Shown here piece by piece: positions 4,967 to 57,807 of a stretch of DNA of 64,000 nt; the stretch's first letter is position 1; each line of letters starts with the position of its first letter. A program made the position numbers and the translations under genes. Location of the stretch: contig CAYSVM010000002.1 in assembly GCA_964434605.1 (NCBI GenBank), positions 47-64,046 on the forward strand. Direction: 5' to 3'. The notes under the pieces were generated by a model. The model worked only from the letters and a program-made list of their open reading frames with translations, was not told the DNA's origin and ran no database searches. This stretch comes from an uncultured Candidatus Saccharibacteria bacterium. Its GTDB lineage: Bacteria; Patescibacteriota; Kazan-3B-28.

Positions 4967-5818
4967 ATGTTACTCGGATACCATGTATCAACTAGCGGAG
5001 GACTACACAAAGCATTTCAGGAAGCTGAAGCGCTAGAGTGTAGTGCTATCCAGATCTTTGTCGGCAGTCCCCAAACGTGGAACACACCAATTGTTTCTCC
5101 CAAAGAAGCGGAGAAATTCAAACAAGCATGGAAAAAATCCAAAGTTAAGAAGGTTTTGGTTCATTCTGCATATCTACCTAATCCAGCTAGCCACAAAACT
5201 ACTTTGCGAAATGTAAGTCTAAAGAAAATGAAGGAAGAGATCCGTATTGCCTGTGCTATTGGTGCAGATGGATACAACTTCCACTGTGGAAGCAACCAAG
5301 ACAGCACGATAGAAGGAATAAACCTTACTATCCAGACTCTAAATCGTCTAGCTGAACTAAGTGATAAAAAATATGCTATTCCGTTGATTATCGAAAATGA
5401 TGCTGGTGCCGGTAATAGAATAGGAGACACCATTGAAGAACTAGGTTTAATCTGGGAAGGAATAAAGAATAAAAAAAGATTTGGCTTCACTCTAGACACT
5501 TGCCATTTATTCGTTTCCGGTATTGATGTCCGCACAAAAAAAGATATTGATGACTTACTCGGAAAATTCGATAAACTGATTGGACTGAAATATCTCCAGT
5601 TTATTCACCTAAATGACGCTAAATTCGATCTCGGTTCCCGCAAAGACCGCCACGCTAACATTGGCGAAGGGTTTATCGGTCTAAACGCTTTCAAATACTT
5701 GGTTACCTCACCAAAGTTGAAAGATGTTGCCTTTATCCTAGAAACTCCTCGTACCGGCAACCTCAAAGAAGATCTAAAAGACATTCTCACCCTCAAGAAA
5801 CTCGCCAAGTCGAAATAA
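4967..5818 (+). CDS. nfo: endonuclease IV (AP endonuclease family 2, xylose-isomerase-like TIM barrel)
   Basis: 283 aa; MLLGYHVSTSGGL start, conserved His/Glu/Asp metal ligands (HSAYLPN, FHCG, IENDAG, HLND). Confidence 0.85.
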   Translation: MLLGYHVSTSGGLHKAFQEAEALECSAIQIFVGSPQTWNTPIVSPKEAEKFKQAWKKSKVKKVLVHSAYLPNPASHKTTLRNVSLKKMKEEIRIACAIGADGYNFHCGSNQDSTIEGINLTIQTLNRLAELSDKKYAIPLIIENDAGAGNRIGDTIEELGLIWEGIKNKKRFGFTLDTCHLFVSGIDVRTKKDIDDLLGKFDKLIGLKYLQFIHLNDAKFDLGSRKDRHANIGEGFIGLNAFKYLVTSPKLKDVAFILETPRTGNLKEDLKDILTLKKLAKSK

Positions 5819-5842
5819 AAAAAGTGATACAATAAATCTGTT

Positions 5843-6163
5843 ATGGACAATCAAGTTGTCAACGCCGTTACTGGCGCAGTAGCCGATCAAGCCAAACAAG
5901 CTGCTAATGCAGCTGCCAAAGGCATCTATGAGCGGCTTTTTGATGCATATCAGGGCTTTGTGGGCATCTTCCCTGAACAATATCAGTGGATCATCTCTTT
6001 GGTCCTTATTCTGGCGGTTGCCTCTTTTCTGTTCAAGCTCATCAAGAAGAATTGGCTCTGGCTAGTATTAGCAGTTGTCTTATTCCCGGGTCTTCTGCTT
6101 GTCTTGCAGAACTTCTTCAACTCTCTGGTAGCGCTTTTTATCGGGAAATCTATAGGCCAATAG
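5843..6163 (+). CDS. hypothetical membrane protein
   Basis: 106 aa; three predicted TM helices. Confidence 0.4.
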   Translation: MDNQVVNAVTGAVADQAKQAANAAAKGIYERLFDAYQGFVGIFPEQYQWIISLVLILAVASFLFKLIKKNWLWLVLAVVLFPGLLLVLQNFFNSLVALFIGKSIGQ

Positions 6164-6202
6164 TCTTCTTCGTAGCTTTTCCGCTAACCTCGTTTTTCTG
6201 AT

Positions 6203-7624
6203 ATGCTGGGGGAGATTTTAGATTACCTTATGTACGAAAACCGCACTCTCATCTCAGATACCCCAACCCTTGTCGGACAAACTGTCACCCTTTTTGGCTG
6301 GGTCCACAGTAAGCGGAATATGGGGAAGATTATCTTCATCGATCTTCGAGATGGATTTGGCTTAGTTCAAGTCGTTTTTGGCGACAATCCAAAACTTCAA
6401 GAACAAGCCGACAACCTCAAGCCTGAATCTGCTATTCGGCTTGTTGGCAAAGTAGTGGAAAGGGGAGAGCGGAATATTAACCCCAAGATTGTTACTGGAG
6501 GAATAGAAATCCAAGCCACTGAATTAGAGATACTGAACGAATCCACCACTCCACCATTTGAGATAGACCATGAAACAGTAGCAGACGAAGAAACTCGCCT
6601 AAAATACCGCTACTTAGATCTTCGTCACGAACGAATTCACCACAATTTACTAATGCGCCACCAGGTAATTAACTTTATTCGTAATTTCCTGAATGAACAC
6701 AAATTCATAGAGATAGAAACACCTCTTATGTCCGCCCCCACCCCTGAAGGTGCAAGAGATTTTTTGGTTCCAAGTCGTAAATACCAAGGAAGTTTCTATG
6801 CTCTTCCACAAGCTCCACAACAATACAAACAACTTCTAATGACTGCGTGTTTTGAGCGCTACTACCAAATTGCAAAATGTATGCGAGACGAGGACTTGCG
6901 GGGAGATCGACAACCGGAATTCACCCAACTAGATTTAGAAATGTCTTTTGTTGACCGTGAAGATATTATGAATCTAAACGAAACGTTGCTGATAGAATTA
7001 GTCCGAGTCTTGTATCCAAACAAAGTAATTTCTACCACTCCATTTCCTCGGTTAAGCTACCAGGAAGCAATGGAAAAATATGGTACAGACCGCCCTGATT
7101 TACGCAAGGACAAAACTAATCCAGACGAACTAGCTTTTTGTTGGATAGTGGATTTCCCGTTCTTCGAGAAAACAGACACAGGGTGGACGTTTACCCACAA
7201 TCCCTTCTCCGCACCTATGCCAGAACATATGGATGATTTACTCAACGAACGAAACATCGGGAAGATTATTGCTGCTCAATATGACATTACTTTGAATGGA
7301 AGTGAAATTGGTGGAGGAAGTATTCGGAACCACCAACCACAAGCCCTACTTTCTGCACTAAAGATTATGGGATATGACGAAACAAAAGCTCAAGCGGACT
7401 TTGGCCATATGCTAGAAGCATTCCAATATGGCGCTCCTCCACACGGTGGTATTGCCTGGGGATTAGATCGCTTGGTTATGCTTCTCCAAAACGAACCGAA
7501 TATCCGTGAAGTTATCGCTTTCCCCAAGACAGACAAAGGCCGTGATCCCATGATGGGCTCGCCTCGCGAAGTAGACTCCGCTACCCTGAATGAACTTGGT
7601 CTGTCCTTAAAAAAGAAAAAGTAG
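6203..7624 (+). CDS. aspS: aspartate--tRNA ligase, short archaeal/non-discriminating type
   Basis: 473 aa; class II aaRS motifs RLKYRYLDLR and FTQLDLEMSF..., OB-fold N-terminus; GatCAB is encoded in the same window. Confidence 0.85.
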   Translation: MLGEILDYLMYENRTLISDTPTLVGQTVTLFGWVHSKRNMGKIIFIDLRDGFGLVQVVFGDNPKLQEQADNLKPESAIRLVGKVVERGERNINPKIVTGGIEIQATELEILNESTTPPFEIDHETVADEETRLKYRYLDLRHERIHHNLLMRHQVINFIRNFLNEHKFIEIETPLMSAPTPEGARDFLVPSRKYQGSFYALPQAPQQYKQLLMTACFERYYQIAKCMRDEDLRGDRQPEFTQLDLEMSFVDREDIMNLNETLLIELVRVLYPNKVISTTPFPRLSYQEAMEKYGTDRPDLRKDKTNPDELAFCWIVDFPFFEKTDTGWTFTHNPFSAPMPEHMDDLLNERNIGKIIAAQYDITLNGSEIGGGSIRNHQPQALLSALKIMGYDETKAQADFGHMLEAFQYGAPPHGGIAWGLDRLVMLLQNEPNIREVIAFPKTDKGRDPMMGSPREVDSATLNELGLSLKKKK

Positions 7625-7625
7625 C

Positions 7626-8555
7626 GTGAATAGTCTTGCATTGCTATTAGTCTTTCTCCGGTTCTTCACCGGTACCCTAGATAGCCCCCAACAACAATTG
7701 TTAGGTGTCTTTAACATATTCTCTTCTAGCTACTCTGCTGTCGAATTCGCACAGAATATAAATTCCCTAATTGGTCCCATTCGAAATCTAAACTCAAAAG
7801 ATGTGGAACTCAATTCCAAAGCATCTATTATCATAGACACCGAAAGTAACCGAACTCTGTACTCCAAAAACGCAAACGAATCTCTACCCATCGCCTCCCT
7901 TACAAAAATAATGACCGCACTTGTAGCTCTGGATAGATTCGGTAGTCAGCTCAATACTGTTGCAACTGTTCCCGTAGAAGCAGTGAAAGTCACTGGCTCT
8001 AAAATGTCTTTATACGCCAATGAACGTATCACTATCTCAAACCTCCTAAAGGGTACTCTTATTGAATCCGCAAACGATGCCGCTACTACGCTAGCATATG
8101 CTACAGCAGATACTCCCAACCAATTCATCTCTCTAATGAACCAAAAAGCATCAGAGCTGGGACTCACCCAAACTCACTTTACTAATCCAGTCGGTTTTGA
8201 TGACCCCCAACACTACTCCACCGCCAAAGATCTTGCAGAACTCTCTCGCATCGCTATGGAAAACGAAACTTTTGCCAATATTGTTAAAATCTCTAAGACT
8301 ACCGTAAAAGACGTAAGTGGCAAATTTGTTCACCAGCTAAACACTACGAATAAACTGCTAGGACAGTTTGAGAATGTCATTGGGGTAAAGACCGGCACTA
8401 CAGATGAAGCAGGTGAGTCGCTAGTAGCTGCTGTAGAAGGAGATAGTGGCCAAAAGGTTATCGTGGTCCTACTAGATAGCCCAAACCGTTTCCAAGAGGG
8501 CAAAAAAGCGCTAGACTGGGCGCTCAAGGCATATTCTTGGATAGAACCCCTGTAG
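7626..8555 (+). CDS. D-alanyl-D-alanine carboxypeptidase (S11 serine peptidase, PBP5-like)
   Basis: 309 aa; active-site SLTK (SxxK) motif and SxN-like motif; N-terminal signal/anchor. Confidence 0.8.
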   Translation: MNSLALLLVFLRFFTGTLDSPQQQLLGVFNIFSSSYSAVEFAQNINSLIGPIRNLNSKDVELNSKASIIIDTESNRTLYSKNANESLPIASLTKIMTALVALDRFGSQLNTVATVPVEAVKVTGSKMSLYANERITISNLLKGTLIESANDAATTLAYATADTPNQFISLMNQKASELGLTQTHFTNPVGFDDPQHYSTAKDLAELSRIAMENETFANIVKISKTTVKDVSGKFVHQLNTTNKLLGQFENVIGVKTGTTDEAGESLVAAVEGDSGQKVIVVLLDSPNRFQEGKKALDWALKAYSWIEPL

Positions 8556-8562
8556 GTTAGAT

Positions 8563-9903
8563 ATGGAACACCATTTTCTCGTTGCTATCATCGGCCGTCC
8601 CAATGTCGGCAAATCCACCCTATTCAACCGCCTTATTGGCGAGAAAAAGGCTATTTTAGCCGAAGAACCCGGTACTACCAGAGATGTTCTTTTTGGAGAA
8701 GTAACTTGGAACAAGATTAGCTTTACTGTCGCAGATACTGCCGGTATTGAGCCAGACAACAAATCTGAACTCACTAAAAATGTTTTAGCTCAAACCAAAG
8801 TTGCCCTTGAATCTGCTGATCTCCTTTTATTCCTAGTAAATGCCAAAGAAGGAATTCACCCAGACGACCAAGAAGTTGCCCGTATGGCTCGTAAGCAAAA
8901 CAAGCCCATATTGCTACTAATAAACAAGACAGACAAAAAGGTAGATCCCGAAACACTAGCCGAATTCTATCGTCTTGGATTCAAACAAACATTTGAAACA
9001 GCTGGCACTACCGGCAAGGGAATTGGTGAAGTCCTAGATGAAACTGTATACCAGTTAAATAAGATCAAGAAGTCGAAAGCTAAAACAAAGTCTAGCCATC
9101 CAGTTGTTAAGGTAGCAATCCTTGGCCGCCCCAATGTCGGCAAATCTACCTTATTCAATAAACTAATTGGGAAAAATCGCAGTATTGTAAGCAAAGAAGC
9201 GGGAACTACCCGAGACACCATAGATGAGCAAATACTTTTCGAAAATCACATCCTAGAGTTCACAGATACTGCTGGTCTCCGTCGTCGTGGAAAGGTTGAG
9301 GTAGGAATAGAGAAATTTTCTGCCCTCAGAATGCTACGCGCTGCCCAATCCGCAGACATCTGTCTTCTTTTAATGGAAGCAGACGAAGGAGTTATTGCCC
9401 AAGACCAACATATTTTGGAAATTGTTTTGGAATTGGGTAAAAGTCCAATCCTCGTTATCAACAAATGGGATCTTGTTGAAAAAACACAGAAAATTACTGC
9501 CGAATACGACAAATACCTAGAACAAAAATACCGCTTTGCATCTTGGATACCAAAAATTTACATCTCCGCCCTTACTGGCCAGAGAGTAGATCGACTTAAG
9601 ACCCTGATTCTCTCCACCATGGAACTACGCCACACTCGAATTGCCGATGAAAAAATAAATTCTCTTATTCTCCAAGCGGCAACCGAACGTAGACCATTTG
9701 GGAAATACGCTATTCCCGTTATCCACTCTGCCCGTCAGACATCCACCAATCCACCAGTAATTGAAATGGTGGCAGATCGTCCTGAAGCACTCCACCACAC
9801 CTACCTGCGTTATTTAGAAAATAAGATTCGTGAAGTCTGGCCCCTTACAGGTGTTCCCATCCGATTCGCCCCTAGGGCAAAAGCTCGGCGAGTTAGGAAA
9901 TAA
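8563..9903 (+). CDS. der: ribosome-associated GTPase Der (EngA), tandem GTP-binding domains
   Basis: 446 aa; two G domains each with GRPNVGKSTLFN P-loop and DTAG motifs; KH-like C-terminus. Confidence 0.9.
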   Translation: MEHHFLVAIIGRPNVGKSTLFNRLIGEKKAILAEEPGTTRDVLFGEVTWNKISFTVADTAGIEPDNKSELTKNVLAQTKVALESADLLLFLVNAKEGIHPDDQEVARMARKQNKPILLLINKTDKKVDPETLAEFYRLGFKQTFETAGTTGKGIGEVLDETVYQLNKIKKSKAKTKSSHPVVKVAILGRPNVGKSTLFNKLIGKNRSIVSKEAGTTRDTIDEQILFENHILEFTDTAGLRRRGKVEVGIEKFSALRMLRAAQSADICLLLMEADEGVIAQDQHILEIVLELGKSPILVINKWDLVEKTQKITAEYDKYLEQKYRFASWIPKIYISALTGQRVDRLKTLILSTMELRHTRIADEKINSLILQAATERRPFGKYAIPVIHSARQTSTNPPVIEMVADRPEALHHTYLRYLENKIREVWPLTGVPIRFAPRAKARRVRK

Positions 9904-9982
9904 TAATATCGTCAGTCATTCCTAATCCTATCTTAGTGGTATAATACCCTTGTCATATCCTTTACCATCAAAGGAGGGCAAG

Positions 9983-10228
9983 ATGGCAGGTAAAAAAATC
10001 GGTAAAGTCGTACATTACTACGACAAGATTGGCGTCGCTATTATCGACTTAGCAGGCGACTTAAAATTAGGGGATACCGTCACTTTCAAAAAAGGTGAGG
10101 AAGAAAAGACCGAAACCATCGAGTCGATCCAAATTGAGCGGTCTGCTGTAGATTCCGCCAAAAAGGGAGATGTCGTTGGAATCAGGGTCAACGAACCGCT
10201 TAAAGAAGGTACTGAAGTCTACGCATAG
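9983..10228 (+). CDS. hypothetical small protein (beta-barrel-like, ~81 aa)
   Basis: AAGGAGG RBS directly upstream of ATG at 9983 (the ORF-track start at 9950 is upstream of the RBS); no confident family. Confidence 0.4.
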   Translation: MAGKKIGKVVHYYDKIGVAIIDLAGDLKLGDTVTFKKGEEEKTETIESIQIERSAVDSAKKGDVVGIRVNEPLKEGTEVYA

Positions 10229-10237
10229 AAAATCGGA

Positions 10238-10744
10238 ATGAGACTGATCATCGGACTCGGTAATCCAGGAAAGAAATACGAATCAACTCGCCATAACGCG
10301 GGCAGAATGGCAGTAGATTTGCTTGCCAAGAAACTAAACCTAAAATTCAAGAAACACACTCGTACTGAAACAGAGATAGCTTCCGGAAAAGAAATTATTG
10401 TTGCCAAACCTCTGACTTTCATGAATAATTCAGGTAGAGCCGTGGCGAAGGTGGCCAGATATTTCGGTATTCCTACCGAAGCGATTATTGTGATTTACGA
10501 CGATATCGATCTACCATTTGGAACCATTCGTTCTCGTACTACTGGTAGTAGTGGGGGACACAACGGCATGCAATCTGTTCTTGATAACCTAAAAACCAAT
10601 TCCATTGCTCGTATTCGAATCGGGGTCGGAAGACCCCCTTCAGATGCAAGTAACTACGTCCTAGAACCATTGAATAAAAAACAACTGGCCGAAATATCCA
10701 AGGTAATAGAAGAAGTAGTTGATTTGTTCCTGAAAGCAATGTAG
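10238..10744 (+). CDS. pth: peptidyl-tRNA hydrolase
   Basis: 168 aa; N-terminal LIIGLGNPGKKYESTRHNAG signature. Confidence 0.9.
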   Translation: MRLIIGLGNPGKKYESTRHNAGRMAVDLLAKKLNLKFKKHTRTETEIASGKEIIVAKPLTFMNNSGRAVAKVARYFGIPTEAIIVIYDDIDLPFGTIRSRTTGSSGGHNGMQSVLDNLKTNSIARIRIGVGRPPSDASNYVLEPLNKKQLAEISKVIEEVVDLFLKAM

Positions 10745-10989
10745 CTTGAATGAGCAAAAAGAAGGAGTGACCCTTCCTTTTGCCGTAACTCCCCAGACCT
10801 TTTTCGGTATCAGCCGTGAGGCATTTTACCAAGACCCTTATGTGAAATTTAATTTCGAAGGGTGGGATACCGATTGGAATAAGCAGGGAGAGCCTTATCT
10901 GCAAGCATCAGATTACAGATAAAGCCCTACTGCCTATTTCTCAATTTTCATTTCATTATACCAGAATAATTCATTTTCGTCAATAGATA

Positions 10990-13900
10990 GTGGACGAAGC
11001 ATTTTACCGGCTGCTGCTAGATAAATTTGCTCACACAGAGCATTTTCAAGAATTTCTTGCTACCGCCGGCACAAAATCTATCACTCTCACCGGGCTCAAC
11101 CAGTTTGGGCGAGTTTTAATGTTATCCGCTCTCCAAAAAGAACAACCAAAACCAATTGTTTTCATCACCAAAAACGAGCAAGAAGAGTTCAAAACCCAAA
11201 AGCTCCTGCAAGACCTCTTTGGAATAAAAGCAGAGGTATATCCTCCTCTTCGTTCAGACTCACTCAATCGCCAGGAATTCATCGCCAACTTCCAACAAAG
11301 AATGAGAGTGGGAAAAACCATGACTCATTCCAAAGCAATTACTATCTTCTCTAGCCGAAACTTAATTGAGCCATTAAGCATGCCCGCGACCAGCCTAAAG
11401 ATCTCGGTTGGTGAAGAATTGTCCCCAAACCAGCTTATAACCAACATTGTGGGACTAGGATTTGAACGCCAAACAAAAGTTTTTCAAGCTGGAGAAACTG
11501 CGAATAGGGGAGAGGTAGTGGATGTTTTCGCTCTGGGACAAGAAAATCCTTGGAGGATTACTTTTAGTGGGAATAAAATCGAACAAATCTATTCATTCGA
11601 TTCCATTGACGGAAAAAAAATAAGACAAGAACAGGAGATTGAGATTGGTGCTTTGAAAATAAAGAACTTTGCACCTACTTTTGTTGAATTCCTAGATGAC
11701 CACAAGCAAGACTATATCGTCATCATGGATCACACCGAAGACATTCTCCAGTCCCTCTATGAGATCTTTATGGCTAGTGAAAACGTAGGACTTGTAAGTT
11801 TGAACCAATCGCTAGATCGTCTTCCTCTGGTAAAAATAGAGACGATTGCTTCTGATGAAATCAAACAACTGAACTTCGAATTCATGACCCCACCCATCTA
11901 CGCTTCTCAGATAGATCGACTCACTAGAGACATTACCAAATATCTAAAAGAAGGTTGGCAGATCGGTATATCTACCGACAAAACTAAGTCCATAGAACAA
12001 ATCCTGAAAGAAGCAGATACTACTCCAGACAGCAATCCGGCAATACTCTCGTCTTCTTGTGGAATCGGAACTGTAAGCCCGAGCCTCAAACTTTTCCTTC
12101 TAACCGATGAAGAGATATTCTCCATTGTTACCCAAGTAAATACCAAAACTACCCAGAAACAGCAAAGAATGTTCATGGCAGAAATTCAGCGCGGAGATTA
12201 CATCGTCCACAACGACCACGGCATTGGCCGTCTACTAGACATTCAACGCATCGAACTAAATGGCATCGAAAGAGAATACCTGATTCTCGAATATGCCAAA
12301 GGTGATAAGCTATACGTTCCTATCGACCAGATAGACAAAATTAGCAAATATGTCTCGGTAGATGGACACGAACCCCAACTTACCCGCTTATCTAGTCAAT
12401 CTTGGAAACGAGTAATTAGTAAGATCCGTAAAGAATCTCACAAGTTTGCCAAAGAACTACTCGATCTCTATGCAAAACGGCAACTAAATAGTGGTATTAG
12501 TTTCGACTCCGATGAAATGTGGGAAAAAGCACTTGCTGATTCATTCGGATACCAAGAAACTCCCGACCAAGAAACTGTTATCAACGAAATCTTGGCAGAC
12601 ATGGAACAAGACAGACCCATGGATCGTCTGTTAGTTGCAGATGTGGGTTTTGGCAAAACAGAAGTTGCTATCCGAGCTGCCTTTAAAGCCGTTACCTCGG
12701 GATACCAAGTGGCCGTTCTTGCTCCCACTACCATTCTAGTAGAACAGCACTACAAAACTTTTATCGAACGACTCCAATCTTTTGATGTAAAAATCGCTGC
12801 CTTAAGTCGCTTTAAATCCAAAGCTGAACAAGACAAAATAGTTGCTCAAGTACGGTTAGGTGAGATAAATATTGTTATTGGCACCCACCGCCTTCTCTCT
12901 AAAGATATTCGTTTCAAGAACCTTGGCCTTATTATCATCGACGAAGAACAGCGCTTTGGTGTAGCCCACAAAGAAAAGCTCAAAATGCTCCGTAGCGAAG
13001 TAGATGTACTTTCTCTTACTGCCACCCCCATCCCACGTACTCTCAACCTAGCCCTCTCGGGCATTAGAGACATTAGCGTAATCGAAACTCCACCCACCAA
13101 CCGTCTTCCCATTATTACCACCGTTGTTCCATATGGGAGTAACACAATAAAAGAAGTAATAGAAAGGGAAGTAAGACGCAGCGGACAAGTATATTTCGTC
13201 CATAATCGTGTCCAAACAATAGATACTGTTCAGCACCGTCTAGAACAACTCATGCCCGAAGTAAAATTTGTTCATGCTCACGGGCAAATGGGAGAAAGAA
13301 TGCTAGCAAAAATAATGCAGGACTTTGATGCACACAAGTACGATGTACTAATTGCTTCCACGATTATTGAAAATGGTATTGATAACCCAAACGTAAACAC
13401 TCTAATTGTAGACGATGCCGGCAGATTCGGCCTATCCCAGCTTCACCAGCTCAGAGGCCGTATTGGACGTGGAAAGATCCAAGCCTACTCTGTATTCATG
13501 TATAACAAAGGCAAGATGTCAGAACGCGCTCTAGAACGACTCAAAACTATCCAGGAAAACACCGAACTAGGAAGCGGGTACAACATTGCCATGCGAGATA
13601 TGCAAATTCGTGGTGCTGGTGGAGTTCTGTCCAAACAACAACACGGACACATTACCGCTATTGGCTTGAGTCTCTATACCAAACTCATCAACAAAGCCGT
13701 AGATGAGCTTAGAAGTGGTCGTAAAATAGATGTTTCAGATGTTACCATCGACCTTCCTGTCAGCGCCTTCCTTCCAGTAAAATATGTAGATGCAGAAAGC
13801 CAACGCCTGAAGATCTACCAAACCCTAGGCATCATTGAAAACGAATCTTCTCTTACCGAAGAATTCAAACGAATAGAAGAAAACTACGGCAAGATGCCAG

Positions 13901-14205
13901 TCGAAGTAACAAACCTAAGAAAACTGCTCGAACTGAAACTAACAGCACTTGCCACCCAACTAATTACATCTATTACTGCACGTAACCTCAACCCCAGCAA
14001 CCTACCACCACTCTACTCCATTACCATCCAATTTACCCAGCCACCTAAACCAAAAACACTAGAGCCTGTAATAAAGTTACTTCCTAGTTTGCAAGTGGGG
14101 GAGAAAGATATCAAATTCAACCACACCGACATCTCTGGCGATTGGCTCGAAGCTCTTACAAAAATGGTTTCTCTCATTCATCCCAACGACAACGGCTCTA
14201 GTTGA
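10990..14205 (+). CDS. mfd: transcription-repair coupling factor
   Basis: 1071 aa; UvrB-homology N-terminus, RNAP-interaction domain, superfamily-2 helicase motifs (DVGFGKTEVA, DEEQRFG), TRCF C-terminal domain. Confidence 0.9.
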   Translation: MDEAFYRLLLDKFAHTEHFQEFLATAGTKSITLTGLNQFGRVLMLSALQKEQPKPIVFITKNEQEEFKTQKLLQDLFGIKAEVYPPLRSDSLNRQEFIANFQQRMRVGKTMTHSKAITIFSSRNLIEPLSMPATSLKISVGEELSPNQLITNIVGLGFERQTKVFQAGETANRGEVVDVFALGQENPWRITFSGNKIEQIYSFDSIDGKKIRQEQEIEIGALKIKNFAPTFVEFLDDHKQDYIVIMDHTEDILQSLYEIFMASENVGLVSLNQSLDRLPLVKIETIASDEIKQLNFEFMTPPIYASQIDRLTRDITKYLKEGWQIGISTDKTKSIEQILKEADTTPDSNPAILSSSCGIGTVSPSLKLFLLTDEEIFSIVTQVNTKTTQKQQRMFMAEIQRGDYIVHNDHGIGRLLDIQRIELNGIEREYLILEYAKGDKLYVPIDQIDKISKYVSVDGHEPQLTRLSSQSWKRVISKIRKESHKFAKELLDLYAKRQLNSGISFDSDEMWEKALADSFGYQETPDQETVINEILADMEQDRPMDRLLVADVGFGKTEVAIRAAFKAVTSGYQVAVLAPTTILVEQHYKTFIERLQSFDVKIAALSRFKSKAEQDKIVAQVRLGEINIVIGTHRLLSKDIRFKNLGLIIIDEEQRFGVAHKEKLKMLRSEVDVLSLTATPIPRTLNLALSGIRDISVIETPPTNRLPIITTVVPYGSNTIKEVIEREVRRSGQVYFVHNRVQTIDTVQHRLEQLMPEVKFVHAHGQMGERMLAKIMQDFDAHKYDVLIASTIIENGIDNPNVNTLIVDDAGRFGLSQLHQLRGRIGRGKIQAYSVFMYNKGKMSERALERLKTIQENTELGSGYNIAMRDMQIRGAGGVLSKQQHGHITAIGLSLYTKLINKAVDELRSGRKIDVSDVTIDLPVSAFLPVKYVDAESQRLKIYQTLGIIENESSLTEEFKRIEENYGKMPVEVTNLRKLLELKLTALATQLITSITARNLNPSNLPPLYSITIQFTQPPKPKTLEPVIKLLPSLQVGEKDIKFNHTDISGDWLEALTKMVSLIHPNDNGSS

Positions 14206-14245
14206 CCCCCAAAACCCTGCATGCTATTCTCCAACCAGTACCTTA

Positions 14246-14638
14246 ATGTTGAGAGGTGGAACTATTTTGCGCGTTATTATTACGACAAACCAAGATACCC
14301 TTGGAATTATTTGTTTTTTCCTTGGGCATCATAAAGATCTCCTCAATGCAGAGGAAGTTGTAATCACCCTAACGGGAAACAGGGTGATTATGGGAAAAAT
14401 CACGAAAGAAGCTGCGCCAAGTCAGCTTATCGTGACAACTCCCATCAACGACATGTTAAACCAGGAGATATGGGTGAGGATCTCCGACATTGTTCGCATC
14501 CAAGCGAAAAATGTCGATATCAGCATCCAACCGGGAACAGTAAGTAGTATCAAGTTCCCAATTGGATCAGATATCCTACCTCCACCTCCTCCTGGGAGAA
14601 AACATTTGGAAACAGATGAGCTTCCGTTTCCAAGATAA
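14246..14638 (+). CDS. hypothetical protein (130 aa)
   Basis: ORF with poly-Pro C-terminus; followed by terminator hairpin at 14655-14698. Confidence 0.35.
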   Translation: MLRGGTILRVIITTNQDTLGIICFFLGHHKDLLNAEEVVITLTGNRVIMGKITKEAAPSQLIVTTPINDMLNQEIWVRISDIVRIQAKNVDISIQPGTVSSIKFPIGSDILPPPPPGRKHLETDELPFPR

Positions 14639-14654
14639 CCCCCACCAACCGAGC

Positions 14655-14698
14655 AAAGGGCGCTAGACAGCAATGTCGGCGCCCTTTCCATTTCTCTT
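14655..14698 (+). terminator. rho-independent terminator
   Basis: aaagggcgc-(15 nt loop)-gcgcccttt hairpin then ccatttctctt. Confidence 0.6.
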
Positions 14699-14725
14699 GA
14701 CTGGAAGCATAAAATCTAGTAGTAT
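14697..14725 (+). promoter_or_regulatory. near-consensus sigma70 promoter (TTGACT-17-TAGTAT)
   Basis: -35 TTGACT at 14697-14702, 17-nt spacer, -10 TAGTAT at 14720-14725; drives the 14730-15270 unit. Confidence 0.6.
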
Positions 14726-14799
14726 CTAACCTATCTAAAGGTGCTTTTGCCTGGAGTACCTTGTACCTATAACTAGGAAATCTGCCAAAGGGGGCACGA

Positions 14800-15132
14800 A
14801 TGGAATTGGATGCTCGACTGCTGGTAACGAGAGCGCAAGCGATCGTAACTGGCAAAGAAGAAAAGGTCAATGTCCCCCTTCCCAAGGGAGGGGAACTGCA
14901 AATGTTTGTACTGGATAGTATATTCCTGTGTATGACAACAGAAAAAACAGGAAGACAGGTGCATAAGTATTCTGTACCTGTAAGCAATTTTTTCATGGAG
15001 GGCGTAAAGGAAAGCTTTACAGCTTTCCTAACAGAGTCCCTGAAGCAAAGGAACCCCGATGCTACAGTTCCCATATTGGTCATACCGATATGGAGACAGC
15101 GAAGCGGTCGGGGAGCCGATCGGTTCGACTAG
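14800..15132 (+). CDS. hypothetical protein (110 aa) inside a GC-rich promoter-to-terminator unit, or part of a ncRNA
   Basis: AAAGGGGG SD-like sequence 5 nt before ATG; protein has no recognisable family; the locus is unusually rich in G/C runs and hairpins, so coding status is uncertain. Confidence 0.3.
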   Translation: MELDARLLVTRAQAIVTGKEEKVNVPLPKGGELQMFVLDSIFLCMTTEKTGRQVHKYSVPVSNFFMEGVKESFTAFLTESLKQRNPDATVPILVIPIWRQRSGRGADRFD

Positions 15133-15224
15133 CTCTTCACCTCAGCACCATCAGGCAAGGTGCTGAAAGCCCCGGCGGAGGATTGGGTAGAGCCCCCTTC
15201 AAGTAGGGAAAGAAGGGGACAATC

Positions 15225-15270
15225 GGGGCTGAACGTGGTAGTAATACCACATCCAGCCCCTTTTCTTTGT
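15225..15270 (+). terminator. strong rho-independent terminator
   Basis: ggggctgaacgtggtagtaataccacatccagcccc perfect hairpin followed by ttttctttg. Confidence 0.8.
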
Positions 15271-15516
15271 GCAAATTATTTCAAATAAAAATACTGTAAT
15301 TGTCAAACAGTCCTCTAAGACCCAAGTAGGGGAGTTGGAATAACTTGGTAACTCAACAATTTTTACAACAATTATTAGAAACAAATAACAAACATCTATA
15401 TACAAAACAAATAGAACAAATTCAAAACTACAAAAACACTACCACCTCATTAGAATAGGCAACGTCGCACAATGTATCTTGTGCGACATTATATAAGGAG
15501 TACAGGAAGAAGCCCT

Positions 15517-15903
15517 CTAAGCCGGATCTACAGGGATTCTAAAATAATTGAATAACTTTTGCTTATCTTCCCCCTGAATACGACTACGAATTTTCCAATT
15601 TATTTTAGTTGCACTACTCCACACCACCGCCCTAGGCTCTATCTCCAATCTTCCGACCTCAGATACCTTTATAGCCAAATACAGGTCTTCTGGGGCAAAT
15701 AAAAGGCCTAGTTTCTGACTTAGTTGTACAAACGGTTCTAATCCTCCAATACTTTCATAAACCTCTGTTCTAATTGCAAAGTTTGCTCCCCAAAAATATT
15801 TGAACCGTTTTGGCGCATAAATATTTTTTAACCAAAAGAAATCTAGACTCATCAAAAAGGGCCTTAGGCCTCCTCGGAGCCAGACTCCCCCACCAACAGC
15901 CAA
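15517..15903 (-). pseudogene. truncated family-2 glycosyltransferase (C-terminal fragment only)
   Basis: 128 aa ORF; GANFAIRTEVYESIGGLEP resembles the GT2 (GA/NMAFRREvfe.vGGFde) C-terminal region. The N-terminal DXD-containing half is absent because an unrelated gene abuts at 15960. Confidence 0.5.
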
Positions 15904-16526: not shown

Positions 16527-18950
16527 TTATATCTCATTATCTGGTTCCTGTAAACCCCGACCAGGTAAACCAGTATTTTTCGCATACTTAATTCGCTCAC
16601 CTACTTGCATCTCCACAATTCTCTTATCTTTTCCAAATTTTAGGCGTGATAACTGCTTAATTGCCTCTCCAATCTTTATATTCGACTGTCCCATGGGAGC
16701 AGGTGCTTGAAGTGTAAATGGACGACTAGCCATACCGTCGATCATAAGTTTTACGTATGCATTCCTATTCTCTATGTTTATCAGATCATTCTGGCTTACA
16801 TCTGGTTCAAATTGTTTCCCAATCGTCTCTGCATCTGGTGCACCAATTGTGAAAGCAATTAGCGAACCAACGTTGCCAAATACAGCATCGCGAATCTTTT
16901 CTTCCAGCTGTGCTACAAACTGATGAGCAATAATAAGATTCAATCTGTATTTACGAGCTTCGGAGAGAATCGTTGCAATAGATTCAGTTGTAACATTCTG
17001 GAACTCATCGATATATAAATAGAAATCATTACGAGAATTCTCTGCCATATCTGCCCTAGAAAGTGCTGCCATCTGCATTTTGGATACGAGAATAAAACCA
17101 AGCAAGTTGCTATTTATTTCTCCAGTCAAACCTTTAGCTAGATTTACCAACAGAATTTTTTTGTTGTCCATCACCTCACGGATGTCGAAAGAACTCTTTG
17201 CTTGTCCGACAATATTCCGCATCATTTCGTTGCTGATAAATCGCCCAATTTTACTAATAATGTATGAGAACAACTCCCCTACCTGATTACTTTTTTCCGC
17301 TTGGGCAAACTCTTCTTTCCAAAAACGCAAAACTGTTGGATCTGTAACATTCACCAACTTTGCTTCCCTAAATGCCTTATCTGTGAAAACTCTTGGAATA
17401 TCTATCAACGTAGCACCTGTTTCATCTGCCAAAAGCAGTAACATTGCGTTACGCATATAGTGTTCAAAAATTGGTCCCACAATCCCAGAACTATTCGGAT
17501 CGAACAACTTATAAAATATGGCTATCATTTCAGACACCACTATATCCTTTTCTGCAGGTGTAGTTGCTTCCAGCAGGTTCAATCCCAATGGCCTACTAAT
17601 ATCTGGCGGATAGAAATGAATTACATCATCCACTCGTTCTTTTGGAATCCTTTGCAAGAGCCACTCAATCATATCTCCATGAGGGTCAATCACACACACT
17701 CCTTGGCCATCGATAATATCCTGGAATGCCATGTTCTGCATCCAAGTAGTTTTACCTGTACCAGTTTTACCAATTACATAGATATGTCTACGCCGATCAT
17801 CTGTTTCCATCCGAACCAGTTTTTCCATACCCCGGTAAACATTCTTACCGAGTAAAATCCCCTGTTTTGGTAAATTCTCTGGTGCAGGAAGCCTCTTTGC
17901 TTTCAACCAACGAATATTTGGAGTCTCTGTCTTTACTCCAGGCAAATGAAAAACTGTAGCCAACTCTTCTGTATTAAAAATAAATGAATTTCTAGGATCA
18001 CCAAACTGACGCAAGATATAGTCTTTCAAGACTTCCATCTCTGGATATTTCGCTACTGTCAAACCATTTAATTCGGGCGCATTGAACTGTAAAAAGCTGT
18101 CTATCAATGTTTTCAGATGACCCTTTGCTTGATTTTCATCCGGTGCAGTTGCAACCAACCGGATAACTGTTTCAAAACCAGATTTTGTTGCTTTAGTTTC
18201 AATTGCCCGGACAACATCTTCCTGTCCTGCAGTAATTTGCTTCTGTTCTGGTTGTTTTCCATCTTTACTGGTAGGTGTCACCAGCTCACCTAGCCCTTTC
18301 AAAACGCCTTCGCTAATAGATGAATTGGATTTTCCTTGCTGCAGGGTTTTTGCGACTGCATGCGCTTGTTTCGTCCATTTCTTGCCATCAATCGGTCTAA
18401 ACATTATCTGAATCCCCGCTCCTGCCCCCTGATCCGCCAGTTTACTCATTGCATTAGTAAGTGCCGAAAGTCCATCTATTTGCAAATTCGCATAAGTACG
18501 AATTGGGAAATAGTTTGGCTTCTTCAGCGTCAACTGGACGCTGGCAATCTTTGCATCTGACGGGAAAAAGTTCGGATATGGTGCCCTCTCAACGACCGCA
18601 TCTGGGTATTGGGAAGTAATTTGTTTTTCCAAAAAGTCTATCAAACTTACAGGTACAGTAGCATAAAAAGTAATCAATTCCTGTTCGGTAGCAATTTCAA
18701 AAGTCAGATGCCGATTCCCCACCGCATCTGCAATACCCGCCAGATTACTGAAAATAGTTTCCATTGGCGCAATAATCGCCTTAATATCCGGTGTCTGTCC
18801 TTCCTCTTTTGGCCGTGGGACTGCAATCATCAAATTCACCCGACTCCGTACGTCATCAGGTCCCCTCTTAGACTTCCTTTGTGATAACCAAAACCAACCG
18901 ATACCGGCCAAAACAATAACCACCCCCAATCCTAAATAAAAACCTGCCAT
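16527..18950 (-). CDS. type IV coupling protein-like ATPase (TrwB/TraD/VirD4 family), paralog 1
   Basis: 807 aa; one N-terminal TM helix and a ~390-aa N-domain. Walker A VIGKTGTGKTT is followed by VIDPHGDM (compare TrwB GTGKS...IVDPNGDM). Walker B YLYIDEFQN and a post-Walker-B HQFVAQL...GNVGSLIAF..DAET block match the TraG-D_C/T4CP pattern. ATG overlaps the stop of the upstream 126-aa gene (ATGA). Confidence 0.7.
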   Translation of the reverse strand: MAGFYLGLGVVIVLAGIGWFWLSQRKSKRGPDDVRSRVNLMIAVPRPKEEGQTPDIKAIIAPMETIFSNLAGIADAVGNRHLTFEIATEQELITFYATVPVSLIDFLEKQITSQYPDAVVERAPYPNFFPSDAKIASVQLTLKKPNYFPIRTYANLQIDGLSALTNAMSKLADQGAGAGIQIMFRPIDGKKWTKQAHAVAKTLQQGKSNSSISEGVLKGLGELVTPTSKDGKQPEQKQITAGQEDVVRAIETKATKSGFETVIRLVATAPDENQAKGHLKTLIDSFLQFNAPELNGLTVAKYPEMEVLKDYILRQFGDPRNSFIFNTEELATVFHLPGVKTETPNIRWLKAKRLPAPENLPKQGILLGKNVYRGMEKLVRMETDDRRRHIYVIGKTGTGKTTWMQNMAFQDIIDGQGVCVIDPHGDMIEWLLQRIPKERVDDVIHFYPPDISRPLGLNLLEATTPAEKDIVVSEMIAIFYKLFDPNSSGIVGPIFEHYMRNAMLLLLADETGATLIDIPRVFTDKAFREAKLVNVTDPTVLRFWKEEFAQAEKSNQVGELFSYIISKIGRFISNEMMRNIVGQAKSSFDIREVMDNKKILLVNLAKGLTGEINSNLLGFILVSKMQMAALSRADMAENSRNDFYLYIDEFQNVTTESIATILSEARKYRLNLIIAHQFVAQLEEKIRDAVFGNVGSLIAFTIGAPDAETIGKQFEPDVSQNDLINIENRNAYVKLMIDGMASRPFTLQAPAPMGQSNIKIGEAIKQLSRLKFGKDKRIVEMQVGERIKYAKNTGLPGRGLQEPDNEI

Positions 18951-22872: not shown

Positions 22873-22989
22873 ATGGCTATTATACCTGATAAAATTCCCC
22901 ATTACGGGAGCGGATTTCCCCCTTGCTCTCGGGGGGGTAGTGCTATATTGTAGGCGTATTGTAATCATCCAAACCAAAGGAGGTAACGG

Positions 22990-23727
22990 ATGAGAACCTT
23001 GAAATTGACAGTGGCGTTCATCGTCTTGATAGCGCTACTCTTTGCGGGATGGCTTGTAGCCTCCCACTCAACCACCCAACTGGCCTACACCAAATCGGCA
23101 AACACAAACCCAGTCATTGGCAAGACCGCAACAAGTCTTGCCACCAACCCTAACATGCCAAAGGGATTTGTAGATGTAATCTACAAAATCCCCGGCAAAC
23201 CAGCATGGCCAAGCCAGCTGAAGGAAGCGAACATATACATCAGCGTATATGTTCAAGGAAATCTGCCGGACACCCTGAAGAGTGATCCTGCCTTTGATGA
23301 TTTTTACACCCAAATTATGATTGGGCGTAACTATCAGGTGCTGAAGAGGGACGAACTCGATAGACCAATCCAGTACACTTTTACTGGAGGAAACTATCAG
23401 ATTAGAAGCGGTACACCATATCGCTTCGGTGGCGGGATACTACTGGAAATTCCGCCAGTAGTTGCCAGTGACGACCCCAATGTCGTTGGTAACTGGAACA
23501 ATCTCATCAACCGCGAGTGGTGGGATTATACAATGCGAGATCTAGACTCGTTCAAGCCCTACATCCTAAAGGCATCCAAGGATTGGGCAGGTCTGGCTGA
23601 TGTCCCGCATCGGCTAGCAGCGAGGACAATGATGGAACTAGCTAGGTCCATTGAACGTAAGCGCTTTACTGTAGCGTTTGGTGTTCAGGATGGACCACTT
23701 ATTGCAAAACCTCAACCAACAAGATGA
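22990..23727 (+). CDS. hypothetical secreted/anchored protein (245 aa)
   Basis: AAAGGAGG RBS; N-terminal signal/TM; GC visibly higher than neighbours; strong terminator follows at 23744-23780. Confidence 0.5.
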   Translation: MRTLKLTVAFIVLIALLFAGWLVASHSTTQLAYTKSANTNPVIGKTATSLATNPNMPKGFVDVIYKIPGKPAWPSQLKEANIYISVYVQGNLPDTLKSDPAFDDFYTQIMIGRNYQVLKRDELDRPIQYTFTGGNYQIRSGTPYRFGGGILLEIPPVVASDDPNVVGNWNNLINREWWDYTMRDLDSFKPYILKASKDWAGLADVPHRLAARTMMELARSIERKRFTVAFGVQDGPLIAKPQPTR

Positions 23728-23743
23728 ACCTTAGACAACCACC

Positions 23744-23780
23744 GCCCTAGCGCATCCGTGCGTTAGGGCTTTTTTATTTC
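23744..23780 (+). terminator. rho-independent terminator
   Basis: gccctagcgcatccgtgcgttagggc hairpin + ttttttatttc. Confidence 0.8.
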
Positions 23781-23797
23781 TTTTTCAATCTCAAAAA

Positions 23798-23826
23798 TTG
23801 ACACCCAGCCTAAAAATCTCTAATCT
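23798..23826 (+). promoter_or_regulatory. candidate sigma70 promoter (TTGACA-17-TAATCT)
   Basis: -35 perfect, -10 weak; upstream of the 23869 gene. Confidence 0.4.
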
Positions 23827-23868
23827 GAAGGTGATTATTGTACCCTACCAAGAAGGAGGACTACGCCG

Positions 23869-24318
23869 ATGAAGGTCTTTGTGCGAGACCTGCGAATCGA
23901 TGGAGTTACTGTCCATCGTAACCAAGACAAGGAAAGTAGCATAGGCATAGTAGCAGGAATGGACGATGGACGACGAACTGCAATAGTAAACGCAATTCGT
24001 AAACAAAAAGAAGTCGTATTCGAAATTTTTGGCACGTTAGGATGCCAAAACTTCGATTTCATCGGAGCACTCGAGAAGGTGCTCGACGAGATCGAGAGTT
24101 TCGGAAAGGCTCCGTGGGTAAACACTATCGTCATGCTTGACGATGTGGTAACCCGCGAGAGCTATGATCGCATTAAGATGCTTTTTCCAGAGTTCGAGCT
24201 CGAACCGAAGGAAAAAAGCATAACTATCGTCTCAACTAGGCGACAACCAATCATTTGGACTACCAAGTCCTTACGTGACAAGTTGTCGTTAGTCGCGACG
24301 GTATCTCCATCGGCCTAA
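23869..24318 (+). CDS. hypothetical protein (149 aa)
   Basis: AAGGAGG RBS; no recognisable family; elevated GC. Confidence 0.5.
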   Translation: MKVFVRDLRIDGVTVHRNQDKESSIGIVAGMDDGRRTAIVNAIRKQKEVVFEIFGTLGCQNFDFIGALEKVLDEIESFGKAPWVNTIVMLDDVVTRESYDRIKMLFPEFELEPKEKSITIVSTRRQPIIWTTKSLRDKLSLVATVSPSA

Positions 24319-24508
24319 CGGTCTCATCTGTTCTTTTCTTGCGCCGACTTTGGAGCAACTACCAGAGTCACGCAATATATACGACAACCCCCTGCCGAAA
24401 GGCGGGGGGTTTCCCTATGTCCAATATTATCCGCTCTGGAAGCTGATAATCTTGACATTTCTCCCTTTTAGGAGTAAGCTACCCATATCCTTTTACAGGA
24501 GGTACTTT

Positions 24509-24943
24509 ATGTCCCCTAGCGCAACCTTCTTAGTTTTGGGTTCGCTGCTGTGGGTTTTTGTAGCCCACTTTGCGTTATCAAGACTACATCACTGGTTTTT
24601 CCGAGTGATGTCAGTCTTCGCTCTCGGCAGCTTCTTCTGTCTGATATCCCAACATCGGCCAGAAGAAATGTCCCCACACATTTTGTGGGTCACGCCGCTT
24701 GTCGGTCTGATCATCGTACTCTGGAGTATGGTGATCCGACTGGACAAAAGAGCAATCATCAGTTTTCTCATTGGAGCACTGGTGATTGGTCTGGCCGTTT
24801 GGGCAACAAATGCCCAAACACAACCAGACTCGATAACATATCAGCTCCCCTCAAAACAGGAGCTGACAGCACCCGATCCTACTGAACCACCGGGCATTAG
24901 TAGAGTGTTTCTCTACAAAATGTACCATGGTGAAGATCAGTAG
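24509..24943 (+). CDS. hypothetical membrane protein (~144 aa)
   Basis: AGGAGG RBS before internal ATG at 24509 (the ORF-track start at 24350 lacks an RBS); four hydrophobic helices; terminator at 24978-25008. Confidence 0.45.
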   Translation: MSPSATFLVLGSLLWVFVAHFALSRLHHWFFRVMSVFALGSFFCLISQHRPEEMSPHILWVTPLVGLIIVLWSMVIRLDKRAIISFLIGALVIGLAVWATNAQTQPDSITYQLPSKQELTAPDPTEPPGISRVFLYKMYHGEDQ

Positions 24944-24977
24944 GCTGGTCGGGCTAGGAGGAAAGGTAGAAAGAATT

Positions 24978-25008
24978 AGCCCCGCACACGTTGTGGGGCT
25001 TTTCTCTT
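24978..25008. terminator. rho-independent terminator, likely bidirectional (island genes on + and ligA on -)
   Basis: agccccgcacacgttgtggggct hairpin followed by tttctctt on + and by aattctttc on -. Confidence 0.65.
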
Positions 25009-25015
25009 GTCTAAA

Positions 25016-31384: not shown

Positions 31385-31774
31385 ATGTCCAAACATGCTT
31401 CTCTCAAGAATACGGAGAAAATAAAAGTAGTCCCAAAGATTTGGGGAGAAGAACGTTGGATCCACAATGACAAACTTTATTGCGGAAAATTATTAATCGT
31501 GAAAAAAGGGAAACACTGTAGCCTGCACTACCACAAACTAAAAACCGAAACCTTCTACGTTACAAAAGGAAAAATTAAAGTTGAACTAACCGATCTAAAA
31601 AATGCCAAAATCAATCCACCAATCATCCGAGAAACCTTTATCCTAAAAACTGGAGATGCAATTATCCTGCACCCCAAAGACGTGCATCGCTTTACTGCAC
31701 TAACTCCTACTGCACAAATCTTCGAATTTTCCACTCAACATTTCGACAGCGACAGCCACCGAATTGCCATCTAA
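31385..31774 (+). CDS. cupin domain protein
   Basis: 129 aa; cupin motifs (KIWGEERW..., HYH, ILHPKDVHRF). Confidence 0.55.
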   Translation: MSKHASLKNTEKIKVVPKIWGEERWIHNDKLYCGKLLIVKKGKHCSLHYHKLKTETFYVTKGKIKVELTDLKNAKINPPIIRETFILKTGDAIILHPKDVHRFTALTPTAQIFEFSTQHFDSDSHRIAI

Positions 31775-33600: not shown

Positions 33601-33824
33601 GTTTTCAAATACAGCCCTTTCCAGACTCTCCGTCCTAGAGAAGCCTCTATGTACCGGAAGAGCTGGAAAGGGCGAGGGAGTTGGTGACTCTCGAAAAGAA
33701 TTGGTAGTAAAGCGCGCACGGCTTAGAACGCGTTAAAGACAATAAAAAAAATCGAGAGTCACGAAAATAAGGAGCTATACATAAACTGTACTCCCTTCTT
33801 ACCTGTTATTATGCCCCCAGTCAA

Positions 33825-57546: not shown

Positions 57547-57807
57547 TGAAGAAATAAAACTATTTCTTCTTAGCTTTCTTCTTGGCTTTCTTCTTTCCTG
57601 CCATGTTTTGGGTCCCCATGAACTTAATTGTTATAACATCTCTAATTATTAGCTCTCTATTCCATAAGTCAATAACCCTGAATGGGGATAAATCAAAAAC
57701 TATTATTCCCAAATTTTATCCCCCGTTTTCCACTTCCAAAAAGGAAAATATCCAGATTTCCCACCTCTCAAAAAACATTGACTGGAAAAAGATTTTTGCC
57801 TACCTAA

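Follow-up and report, generated by a model that had tools for sequence, protein, structure and literature searches.

Large structured non-coding RNAs (ncRNAs) such as OLE, GOLLD, ROOL and raiA occupy units that extend for several hundred nucleotides from a promoter to a terminator, with excess predicted structure and a higher G+C content than their surroundings. We analysed a unit of this appearance in a 64,000-nt stretch of a Patescibacteria genome (contig CAYSVM010000002.1; hereafter the window), where it lies at 14697-15268 behind mfd and contains an open reading frame (ORF) of 110 aa. Comparison with related loci indicates that it is probably one monocistronic unit, encoding a small, clade-restricted and very fast-evolving cytoplasmic protein and bearing conserved structures in its untranslated regions (UTRs). 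Unlike OLE, GOLLD, ROOL and raiA, the unit has no covariance-model match, it carries a conserved translatable ORF under purifying selection, and the structure predicted for its central 330 nt is not conserved. In kind it is ordinary: a single-gene transcription unit whose UTR structures would serve regulation or stability.

Other described systems come close. Terminal stem-loops stabilise bacterial mRNAs, as do the 5'UTR hairpin of E. coli ompA, the B. subtilis aprE and ermC leaders and the 3' hairpins of intrinsic terminators. The unit resembles these in having a stable stem-loop within about 10 nt of where its transcript is predicted to begin, as well as a strong 3' hairpin with a GNRA cap; each is conserved and shows compensatory changes. 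A stabilising role here is putative, and the loops of the two hairpins are in addition conserved and complementary to one another, a property not required of simple stabilisers. In hok/sok-type mRNAs a 5'-3' fold-back (fbi/tac) keeps the message inert, and the toxin is hydrophobic and about 50 aa long. Our unit is likewise compact and highly structured, with a 5' leader complementary, near the Shine-Dalgarno (SD) sequence, to the 3' end; it differs in its 110-aa soluble product. A type I toxin-antitoxin of this kind was rejected, the product being a soluble alpha/beta protein and no antisense promoter passing the scan; an Rfam match to sok (13 bits, E 4.8, where the gathering score is 59) is at chance level. 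Phage morons are single genes with their own promoter and terminator and a deviant composition, inserted between conserved genes. The unit shares with them its autonomous one-gene layout, its promoter and terminator, its higher G+C content and its place between core genes, and several such units occur in the window, but it sits in a bacterial chromosome without prophage context and is syntenic across the clade. A phage origin was also rejected: viral contigs scanned with a GGN motif of the 3'UTR and with the promoter block gave chance-level matches, the single promoter match lying inside an unrelated gene.

The reading frame behind mfd

An initial annotation of the window had left the coding status of the unit unclear and named two candidates, a structured ncRNA of the large kind and a small gene gained by horizontal transfer. 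It had correctly reported an ORF with an SD sequence (GGGGG upstream of 14800-15132) and a comparably long antisense ORF, which is in fact the longer of the two (177 aa, 14550-15083). Related loci were found by anchoring on mfd and on a conserved 174-aa neighbour (p174); the closest public relatives are metagenome-assembled genomes that bear the labels Patescibacteria, Saccharibacteria or class Kazan-3B-28. The slot after mfd contains the ORF in at least six related contigs. Directly behind mfd, and in its orientation, L002, L004, L005, L032/33 and L040 have an ORF of 110-231 aa, and L041 also carries a homologous ORF. A syntenic ORF of 130 aa after mfd in L003 is of uncertain membership.

Every indel within the ORF between the window and L002 is a multiple of three. 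The differences are distributed 34/36/62 over the three codon positions, with pN 0.31, pS 0.72 and dN/dS 0.16. The antisense ORF shares its third codon positions with the sense frame, so this test cannot choose the strand. The open-frame test does: the sense frame has no stop codon in any of the seven loci, and the co-phased antisense frame is free of stops only in the window and L002, with 1-8 stops in the other loci. Wherever a pair matches significantly, blastp also scores higher for sense than for antisense. On this comparative evidence 14800-15132 is the coding frame. Clear protein homologues with a coding substitution pattern exist, which the initial annotation had itself named as grounds against an ncRNA. 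The proposal of a horizontally acquired small gene stands as to the small gene and falls as to its horizontal origin; the same slot after mfd is used across a clade whose Mfd proteins are 76-97% identical, which makes the gene a long-standing resident of the clade and not a recent acquisition.

Searches for known RNAs were negative. Rfam covariance models found only two tRNAs at the gathering threshold in the 64-kb window; the best matches in 14200-15600 reached 10-18 bits (E at least 3), and four homologous loci gave no match at E<=0.5. ARAGORN detected no tmRNA and no tRNA in the region. The RNase P, tmRNA and ROOL/GOLLD/OLE-type families that the initial annotation had raised are thereby covered, as are 6S, SRP and riboswitches, with no family found in the region or in the homologous loci.

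Members of the protein family share the motif [KR]YS[VI]P..F and a G/R-rich C-terminus. An exhaustive hidden Markov model search recovered this small family only, adding P0007 (encoded in L040) and P0008 (encoded in L041); a repeat protein from the same search, P0006, is probably spurious. The family had no match in Pfam, NCBIfam, PADLOC, PHROGs or a PDB-sequence profile search, PADLOC and PHROGs giving none at E<0.1 for five members, and word-indexed protein searches returned nothing beyond the family itself. Divergence is extreme. Identity to the window copy is 45% in L002, where Mfd is 97% identical, and 27-34% in L040, L041 and L005 (Mfd 86-91% in L005 and L040). At fourfold sites of conserved residues the window and L002 differ by 58% in the ORF, by 31% in mfd and by 19-20% in both flanking ORFs, so that the coding sequence (CDS) is a divergence hotspot even at near-neutral sites. 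The CDS and 3'UTR sequence diverge faster than the neutral sites of neighbouring mfd. The uneven neutral-site divergence points to hypermutation confined to this locus or to old alleles whose flanks have recombined. A target gene of a diversity-generating retroelement (DGR) was rejected: the variable body occurs only once in the window, and substitutions involve all four bases. The lack of adenine bias and of a template repeat excludes that class.

AlphaFold2 (AF2) predicted an alpha-beta4-alpha core (residues 5-82) followed by a disordered RG-rich tail. The same core was predicted for two homologues, with a pLDDT of 72.5 for the short form and 84-94 for the matching domain of the long form, whose N-terminal half was modelled with low confidence. 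The top Foldseek match for both models was T. brucei MRP1/MRP2, and human PURA ranked fourth for the long form. Like these Whirly/PUR proteins, the product has a predicted beta-beta-beta-beta-alpha module, and its own gene has a GGN-rich motif in the 3'UTR; it differs from them in showing no sequence similarity, and the structural matches stand at E 0.014-0.2 with a TM score of at most 0.36. The fold may be that of a Whirly/PUR-like nucleic-acid binder, which we treat as a lead and not as a result.

Promoter, leader and 3'UTR

As laid out in Table 1, the unit would begin at a sigma-70-type promoter, continue through a leader of about 68 nt with a stem-loop near its 5' end to the SD sequence and ATG, and pass from the CDS through a structured 3'UTR of about 90 nt into a GNRA-capped intrinsic terminator. 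The promoter had been described as consensus. It is present, but only 9 of its 12 positions agree with the consensus, and matches of that quality occur in the region at the chance rate (6 found, 5.2 expected). It is credible because it is invariant among relatives, not because of its score. The block CTTGACTGGAAGC (14696-14708) is conserved in eight loci and occurs once in the window, and the columns spelling CTTGACTG..AGC are identical in all eight loci of the promoter/leader alignment. A regular expression also matched the block in L036, ahead of a different gene (5117-8680, minus strand); there the invariant block drives a 1156-aa repeat-rich secreted protein.

The 5'UTR stem-loop folds in five of the six loci and is absent from the minimum-energy fold of L002. 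Its covariation, read from the alignment and the per-locus folds, consists of two pairs: pair 4 is U-A in the window and L005, U-G in L002 and C-G in L040, L041 and L004, and pair 5 forms the series G-U, G-C, A-U. The loop sequence UGCCUGG is invariant in five loci. The GGGGG SD sequence lies 5-12 nt ahead of a conserved ATG in six loci.

Table 1. Features predicted in and beside the unit (window coordinates).
Feature	Positions	Strand	Description
Terminator-like hairpin	14655-14687	+	AAAGGGCGC...GCGCCCTTT; perfect 9-bp inverted repeat; ends the unit of the upstream 130-aa ORF
Sigma-70-type promoter	14696-14725	+	-35 TTGACT 14697-14702, 17-nt spacer, -10 TAGTAT 14720-14725
5'UTR stem-loop	14738-14762	+	stem AAGGUGCU/AGUACCUU; conserved loop containing UGCCUGG (14748-14754)
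UC(C/U)GCC box and Shine-Dalgarno	14781-14794	+	box 14781-14786; GGGGG 14790-14794; conserved in alignments, ahead of ATG 14800
Coding sequence, 110-aa lineage-restricted protein	14800-15132	+	ORF, syntenic homologues, dN/dS, frame test, AF2
3'UTR hairpin P1	15142-15166	+	perfect 8-bp stem UCAGCACC/GGUGCUGA, loop AUCAGGCAA
Purine-rich (GGN)-type motif	15174-15190	+	GGCGGAGGAUUGGGUAG; relatives' consensus GGCGGAGGUAGGGUAG
3'UTR hairpin P2	15194-15218	+	CCCCUUC/GAAGGGG, perfect 7 bp
Intrinsic terminator	15225-15268	+	stems GGGGCUG/CAGCCCC and GUGGUA/UACCAC, GNRA tetraloop GUAA, then UUUUCUUU
Conserved non-coding block	15271-15336		AAATTATTTCAAATAAAAATACTGTAATTGTCAAAC ... CCAAGTAGGGGAGT; immediately 3' of the terminator; minus-strand TTGACA inside

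The 3'UTR keeps its loops and changes its stems. In L005 the P1 stem is wholly different (ACACCCC/GGGGUGU) and the loop, AYCAGGCA, is conserved. The GGN-type motif was matched by regular expression in L002, L005, L040 and L041. P2 is longer in the relatives, where it encloses an extra hairpin; the 3'UTR of the window is a reduced version without P3. In a five-sequence alignment of the 3'UTR, seven of the eight P2 helix pairs show compensatory double changes and the terminator has four compensatory pairs. Overall 88.5% of the cells are paired, against 42-49% with the partners slid, and 12 of 30 pairs carry double-sided changes, a number reached by none of 500 shuffles. The 3'UTR folds with z -2.2 to -8.9 in six loci and has no Rfam match. 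RNAalifold also proposed an alternative helix between the 5' arm of P1 and GGUAGGGU, with the pair series C-G, U-G, U-A.

The terminator had been reported as a perfect 36-nt hairpin. The hairpin (15225-15260) and the U-tract after it (TTTTCTTT) are present and conserved in six loci; perfection is not, as the 16-nt arms are 88% complementary and contain a 3x3 internal loop, because of which a simple terminator scanner missed the site. The tetraloop is GUAA in the window and GCAA in relatives, and the loop motif was found in L002, L004, L005, L040 and L041. Judged from the alignments, conservation with compensatory changes extends over the promoter, the 5' hairpin, the helices of the 3'UTR and the terminator. 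The idea of a structured RNA keeps its two ends, the 5'UTR and 3'UTR having conserved, covarying structures, and loses its middle, the CDS structure being unconserved and the unit coding.

The loop of the 5' hairpin, UGCCUGG, is complementary over 7 nt to the P1 loop CCAGGCA in five loci, and L004 lacks both elements. The two hairpin loops may form a 5'-3' kissing interaction.

The unit is flanked by mfd (10990-14205) and by a truncated glycosyltransferase gene of family GT2 on the minus strand (15517-15903). The latter, described initially as decayed, is indeed a remnant: it encodes the C-terminal 128 aa and has lost the catalytic N-terminal half, and the gene is intact in L004 (278 aa) and differently broken in L003 and L005. 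The hairpin that forms the 5' boundary of the unit (14655-14687) is 100% conserved in L002, and an analogous GC hairpin stands directly before the promoter in L040, L041 and L005. Beyond the terminator, the block at 15271-15336 is kept in L040 and L004, and GTAGGGGAGT was found in six of six related loci. Over 15271-15480 the window and L002 share 90% identity, a level that falls to about 69% at Mfd fourfold sites; the region 15271-15500 is non-coding and A-rich, with a hairpin at 15461-15490 in every related locus. Among relatives the interval between mfd and p174 is a variable hotspot, and L038 has about 5 kb of unrelated genes there (6531-11577). Next to p174, at 16527-18950 on the minus strand, the window encodes an 807-aa protein with the type IV coupling-protein domains T4SS-DNA_transf, TrwB_AAD_bind and TraG-D_C.

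Hairpin-dense orphan genes in the window

The hairpin density noted in the initial annotation is real. The three local hairpins it named are all present, and the density is far beyond chance. The 546-nt unit (14730-15275) folds at -215.8 kcal/mol, against about -166 kcal/mol for dinucleotide shuffles (z -6.4; -7.7 in a re-run), and its minus strand folds with z -5.7. Perfect Watson-Crick hairpins of at least 7 bp occur at 5.5/kb in the unit, compared with 0.3-0.8/kb in mfd, ligA and the type IV coupling-protein-like gene and about 0.5/kb in shuffles. Two further statements needed revision. The contrast between a GC-rich unit and AT-rich surroundings holds only for 15000-15300 (0.52-0.56); the CDS has 0.47 against about 0.41-0.46 in the flanks. 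The limits 14697-15270 do not bound the feature: the hairpin-dense zone starts at about 14250 and takes in the upstream 130-aa ORF, and similar islands lie elsewhere in the window. That ORF (14246-14638) folds with z -9.8 on the plus and -8.0 on the minus strand and belongs to no family; homologues occur in L002 (81% identical) and L005 and are absent in L004 and L040, and its true start is likely a TTG about 20 nt downstream, with GAGGTGG ahead.

Individual pairs are not kept. When the minimum-free-energy (MFE) pairs of the window CDS were projected on L002, 40% of the changed pairs were still pairable, against 41% in the permutation null, and the reciprocal projection of L002 pairs on the window had the same outcome. 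MFE pairs of the 130-aa ORF and of the pairwise-aligned 3'UTR likewise showed no conservation on L002 beyond chance; for the 3'UTR this is due to poor pairwise alignment, the five-sequence alignment showing covariation. The CDS hairpins are real but lineage-specific and do not form a conserved RNA fold. Excess structure nevertheless recurs in the family: on the sense strand its CDSs have z of -1.8 to -8.3, where control genes have -0.2 to -2.3.

Across the full window the folding scan gave a sharply bimodal distribution. Seven small ORFs (61614-61814, 24350-24943, 23869-24318, 14800-15132, 22990-23727, 14246-14638 and 58296-58937) have mean z between -3 and -7, and some 38 others lie between -1.7 and +0.75. 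Pfam gave no family for the six of the seven that were scanned, all but the 66-aa ORF 61614-61814; those inspected each have promoter-like and terminator sequences of their own. The same hairpin excess on about seven family-less ORFs, and on no core gene, looks like a genome-wide property of orphan genes. In the islands folding greatly exceeds that of shuffles on either strand, with a low share of G-U pairs (4-11%), which points to inverted repeats at the DNA level. Repetitive extragenic palindromic (REP)-like and miniature inverted-repeat transposable element (MITE)-like repeats were rejected, as the hairpins are of unrelated sequence and form no direct-repeat families.

Several tracts of the window merit separate mention. 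The strongest island, 22985-25010 (z -6 to -11 on both strands, 5.9 perfect inverted repeats/kb), contains three small ORFs, of 245, 149 and about 197 aa and without a family, between a gatC-like gene and ligA, with a promoter-like sequence and terminator hairpins. A hairpin-dense 'intergenic' tract at 61500-62000 (z -6.8, plus strand) includes the minus-strand ORF of 59-66 aa at 61614-61814, which resembles a membrane protein with two transmembrane segments and has a strong GGAGG SD sequence and a terminator. At 33590-33830 a structured leader precedes the minus-strand gene 31771-33600; it has two perfect 10-bp stems, CCCTTTCCAG/CTGGAAAGGG and GTGACTCTCG/CGAGAGTCAC, and no Rfam match at the gathering score. 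A sub-threshold match to the eukaryotic SNORA48 at 57723-57853 on the minus strand (29 bits, E 0.005, where the gathering score is 50) is almost certainly a chance hit in a structured tract.

Template switching during replication makes and perfects inverted repeats and RNA stems (PMC5941160, PMC8794818). The islands resemble the repeats attributed to it (Lavi et al. 2018, PMC5941160; Monttinen and Loytynoja 2022, PMC8794818) in being short, perfect, Watson-Crick, unrelated in sequence, present on both strands and subject to turnover between relatives; they differ in being concentrated about tenfold in small orphan protein-coding genes, and not in RNA genes or intergenic DNA. The hairpins may have arisen by template-switch mutation or by selection for stable mRNA, which are not mutually exclusive. 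We favour template-switch (quasi-palindrome) mutation, acting on weakly constrained DNA, as the main source, with selection for stable mRNA perhaps adding to it.

Adaptation at the RNA level, with orphan mRNAs selected as generically structured for half-life or for resistance to nucleases or toxins, is the strongest competitor, though we hold it to be possible rather than likely. It would fit the more negative sense than antisense z in seven of eight family CDSs and five of seven islands, the return of excess structure in homologues whose sequences have turned over (z -1.8 to -8.3; controls -0.2 to -2.3) and the promoter and terminator owned by each island gene. It fits poorly with folding far beyond shuffles on both strands and with the scarcity of G-U pairs (4-11%), both pointing to DNA-level inverted repeats, with the loss of individual pairs, and with an intergenic tract (33590-33830) that has an equal excess.

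Proposed mechanism and rival accounts

In the mechanism we propose, the terminal stem-loops would protect the mRNA from 5'- and 3'-end-dependent decay, and the complementary loops, UGCCUGG at the 5' and CCAGGCA at the 3' end, would join both ends of the message, tuning translation or decay. The protein, as a small nucleic-acid binder of Whirly/PUR-like shape, might recognise GGCGGAGGUAGGGUAG in its own 3'UTR. A bolder pair of linked proposals would combine this with the hairpin islands. First, the orphan genes, about seven in 64 kb and each with its own promoter and terminator, would form a class built of fast-turnover perfect inverted repeats, under a distinct regime of gene birth or evolution (template switching, selection for ultra-stable mRNA, or both). 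Second, the unit would be an autoregulatory RNA-protein module, with kissing 5' and 3' loops and a Whirly/PUR-like product acting on the GGN-rich 3'UTR motif. We regard this pair as speculative and unlikely to hold as a whole.

Several points weigh against the proposed unit and its mechanism. The 5'-3' loop match was noticed post hoc. Global 5'UTR-3'UTR duplex energies were no better than shuffles in five of six loci, although this test covers whole UTRs and is uninformative on a specific loop-loop match, and a second 5'/3' match of 6 nt (UCCGCC/GGCGGA) is expected by chance. The 3'UTR covariation comes from 5-6 sequences, among 5-8 related loci overall, and the 3'UTR structure tested had itself been derived from the alignment on which it was tested. 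MRP1/MRP2 and PURA match the predicted fold weakly, with no match reaching E<=0.001 and all lying within the E and TM ranges given above. The L003 ORF was placed in the family by synteny and by a profile that itself included L003, its blastp being not significant. As to the hairpins, no individual template-switch event could be reconstructed from the signature, and the somewhat better folding of the sense than of the antisense strand in seven of eight family CDSs also fits RNA-level selection.

A second competitor is a dual-function transcript, in which the conserved 3'UTR (15133-15268, with P1, the GGN motif, P2 and the terminator) would be the main selected element besides the protein, acting as a 3'UTR-derived small RNA or a cis-acting switch. 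By analogy with the 5'-3' fold-back of hok-type mRNAs, P1 would pair alternatively with GGUAGGGU while the 5' and 3' loops kiss. We consider this account rather doubtful. The 3'UTR architecture and its loop and single-stranded motifs are constant while the stems covary, RNAalifold recovers the alternative helix between the P1 5' arm and GGUAGGGU, the 7-nt loop complementarity is kept in five loci and lost jointly in L004, and the non-coding ends are more conserved than the CDS. Yet there is no sign of processing or of a separate promoter, the window 3'UTR is reduced and without P3, the sample is small, the duplex-energy test was not significant, and the protein is clearly under purifying selection, so that RNA is not the sole product.

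Improbable, in our judgement, is a conflict-type locus (immunity, anti-defence or toxin-antitoxin-like) made hypervariable by diversifying selection or by allele exchange between conserved flanks. The fourfold divergence of the CDS (58%; mfd 31%, flanks 19-20%), the different mfd-p174 cargo in L036 and L038, with the L036 promoter block driving a different gene, and a second fast-evolving small ORF upstream would all suit such a locus. A dN/dS of 0.16, not above 1, does not; nor do the absence of PADLOC or PHROGs matches, a protein tree roughly congruent with the Mfd tree (L002 closest), a product that is not a small hydrophobic toxin, and the lack of adenine-specific mutation and of a template repeat, which excludes a DGR.

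That all of the roughly 540-nt unit is one large structured ncRNA, OLE/GOLLD/ROOL-like or new, with an accidental ORF, is highly improbable and largely refuted already: the extreme folding z-score, the equally long antisense ORF in the window and L002, the protein without a known family and the non-coding ends better conserved than the ORF would agree with it, but the ORF holds its position and is intact and in frame in seven loci with the antisense frame broken, indels are in frame and third-position substitutions in excess, protein-level similarity is detectable at 27-51% identity, the predicted AF2 fold is consistent, the predicted CDS pairs are unconserved, and no Rfam family matches here or in the homologous loci.

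The analysis removes a false lead, since the stretch with its many hairpins does not represent a new ncRNA of the large kind. Strong structure and abundant hairpins, even with ORFs open on either strand, do not preclude coding, and the locus carries the warning that tests at third positions fail to tell a frame from the antisense frame in phase with it. A small protein family not described before and a conserved UTR architecture are added, in a poorly known clade of the candidate phyla radiation. The analysis also brings out an unusual, measurable feature of this reduced genome, in which orphan genes fold with z of -4 to -11 and the core genes next to them with z near 0. Should the pattern extend to reduced symbiotic genomes in general, it would have consequences for the understanding of gene birth and of mRNA stability under a minimal RNA-decay machinery.

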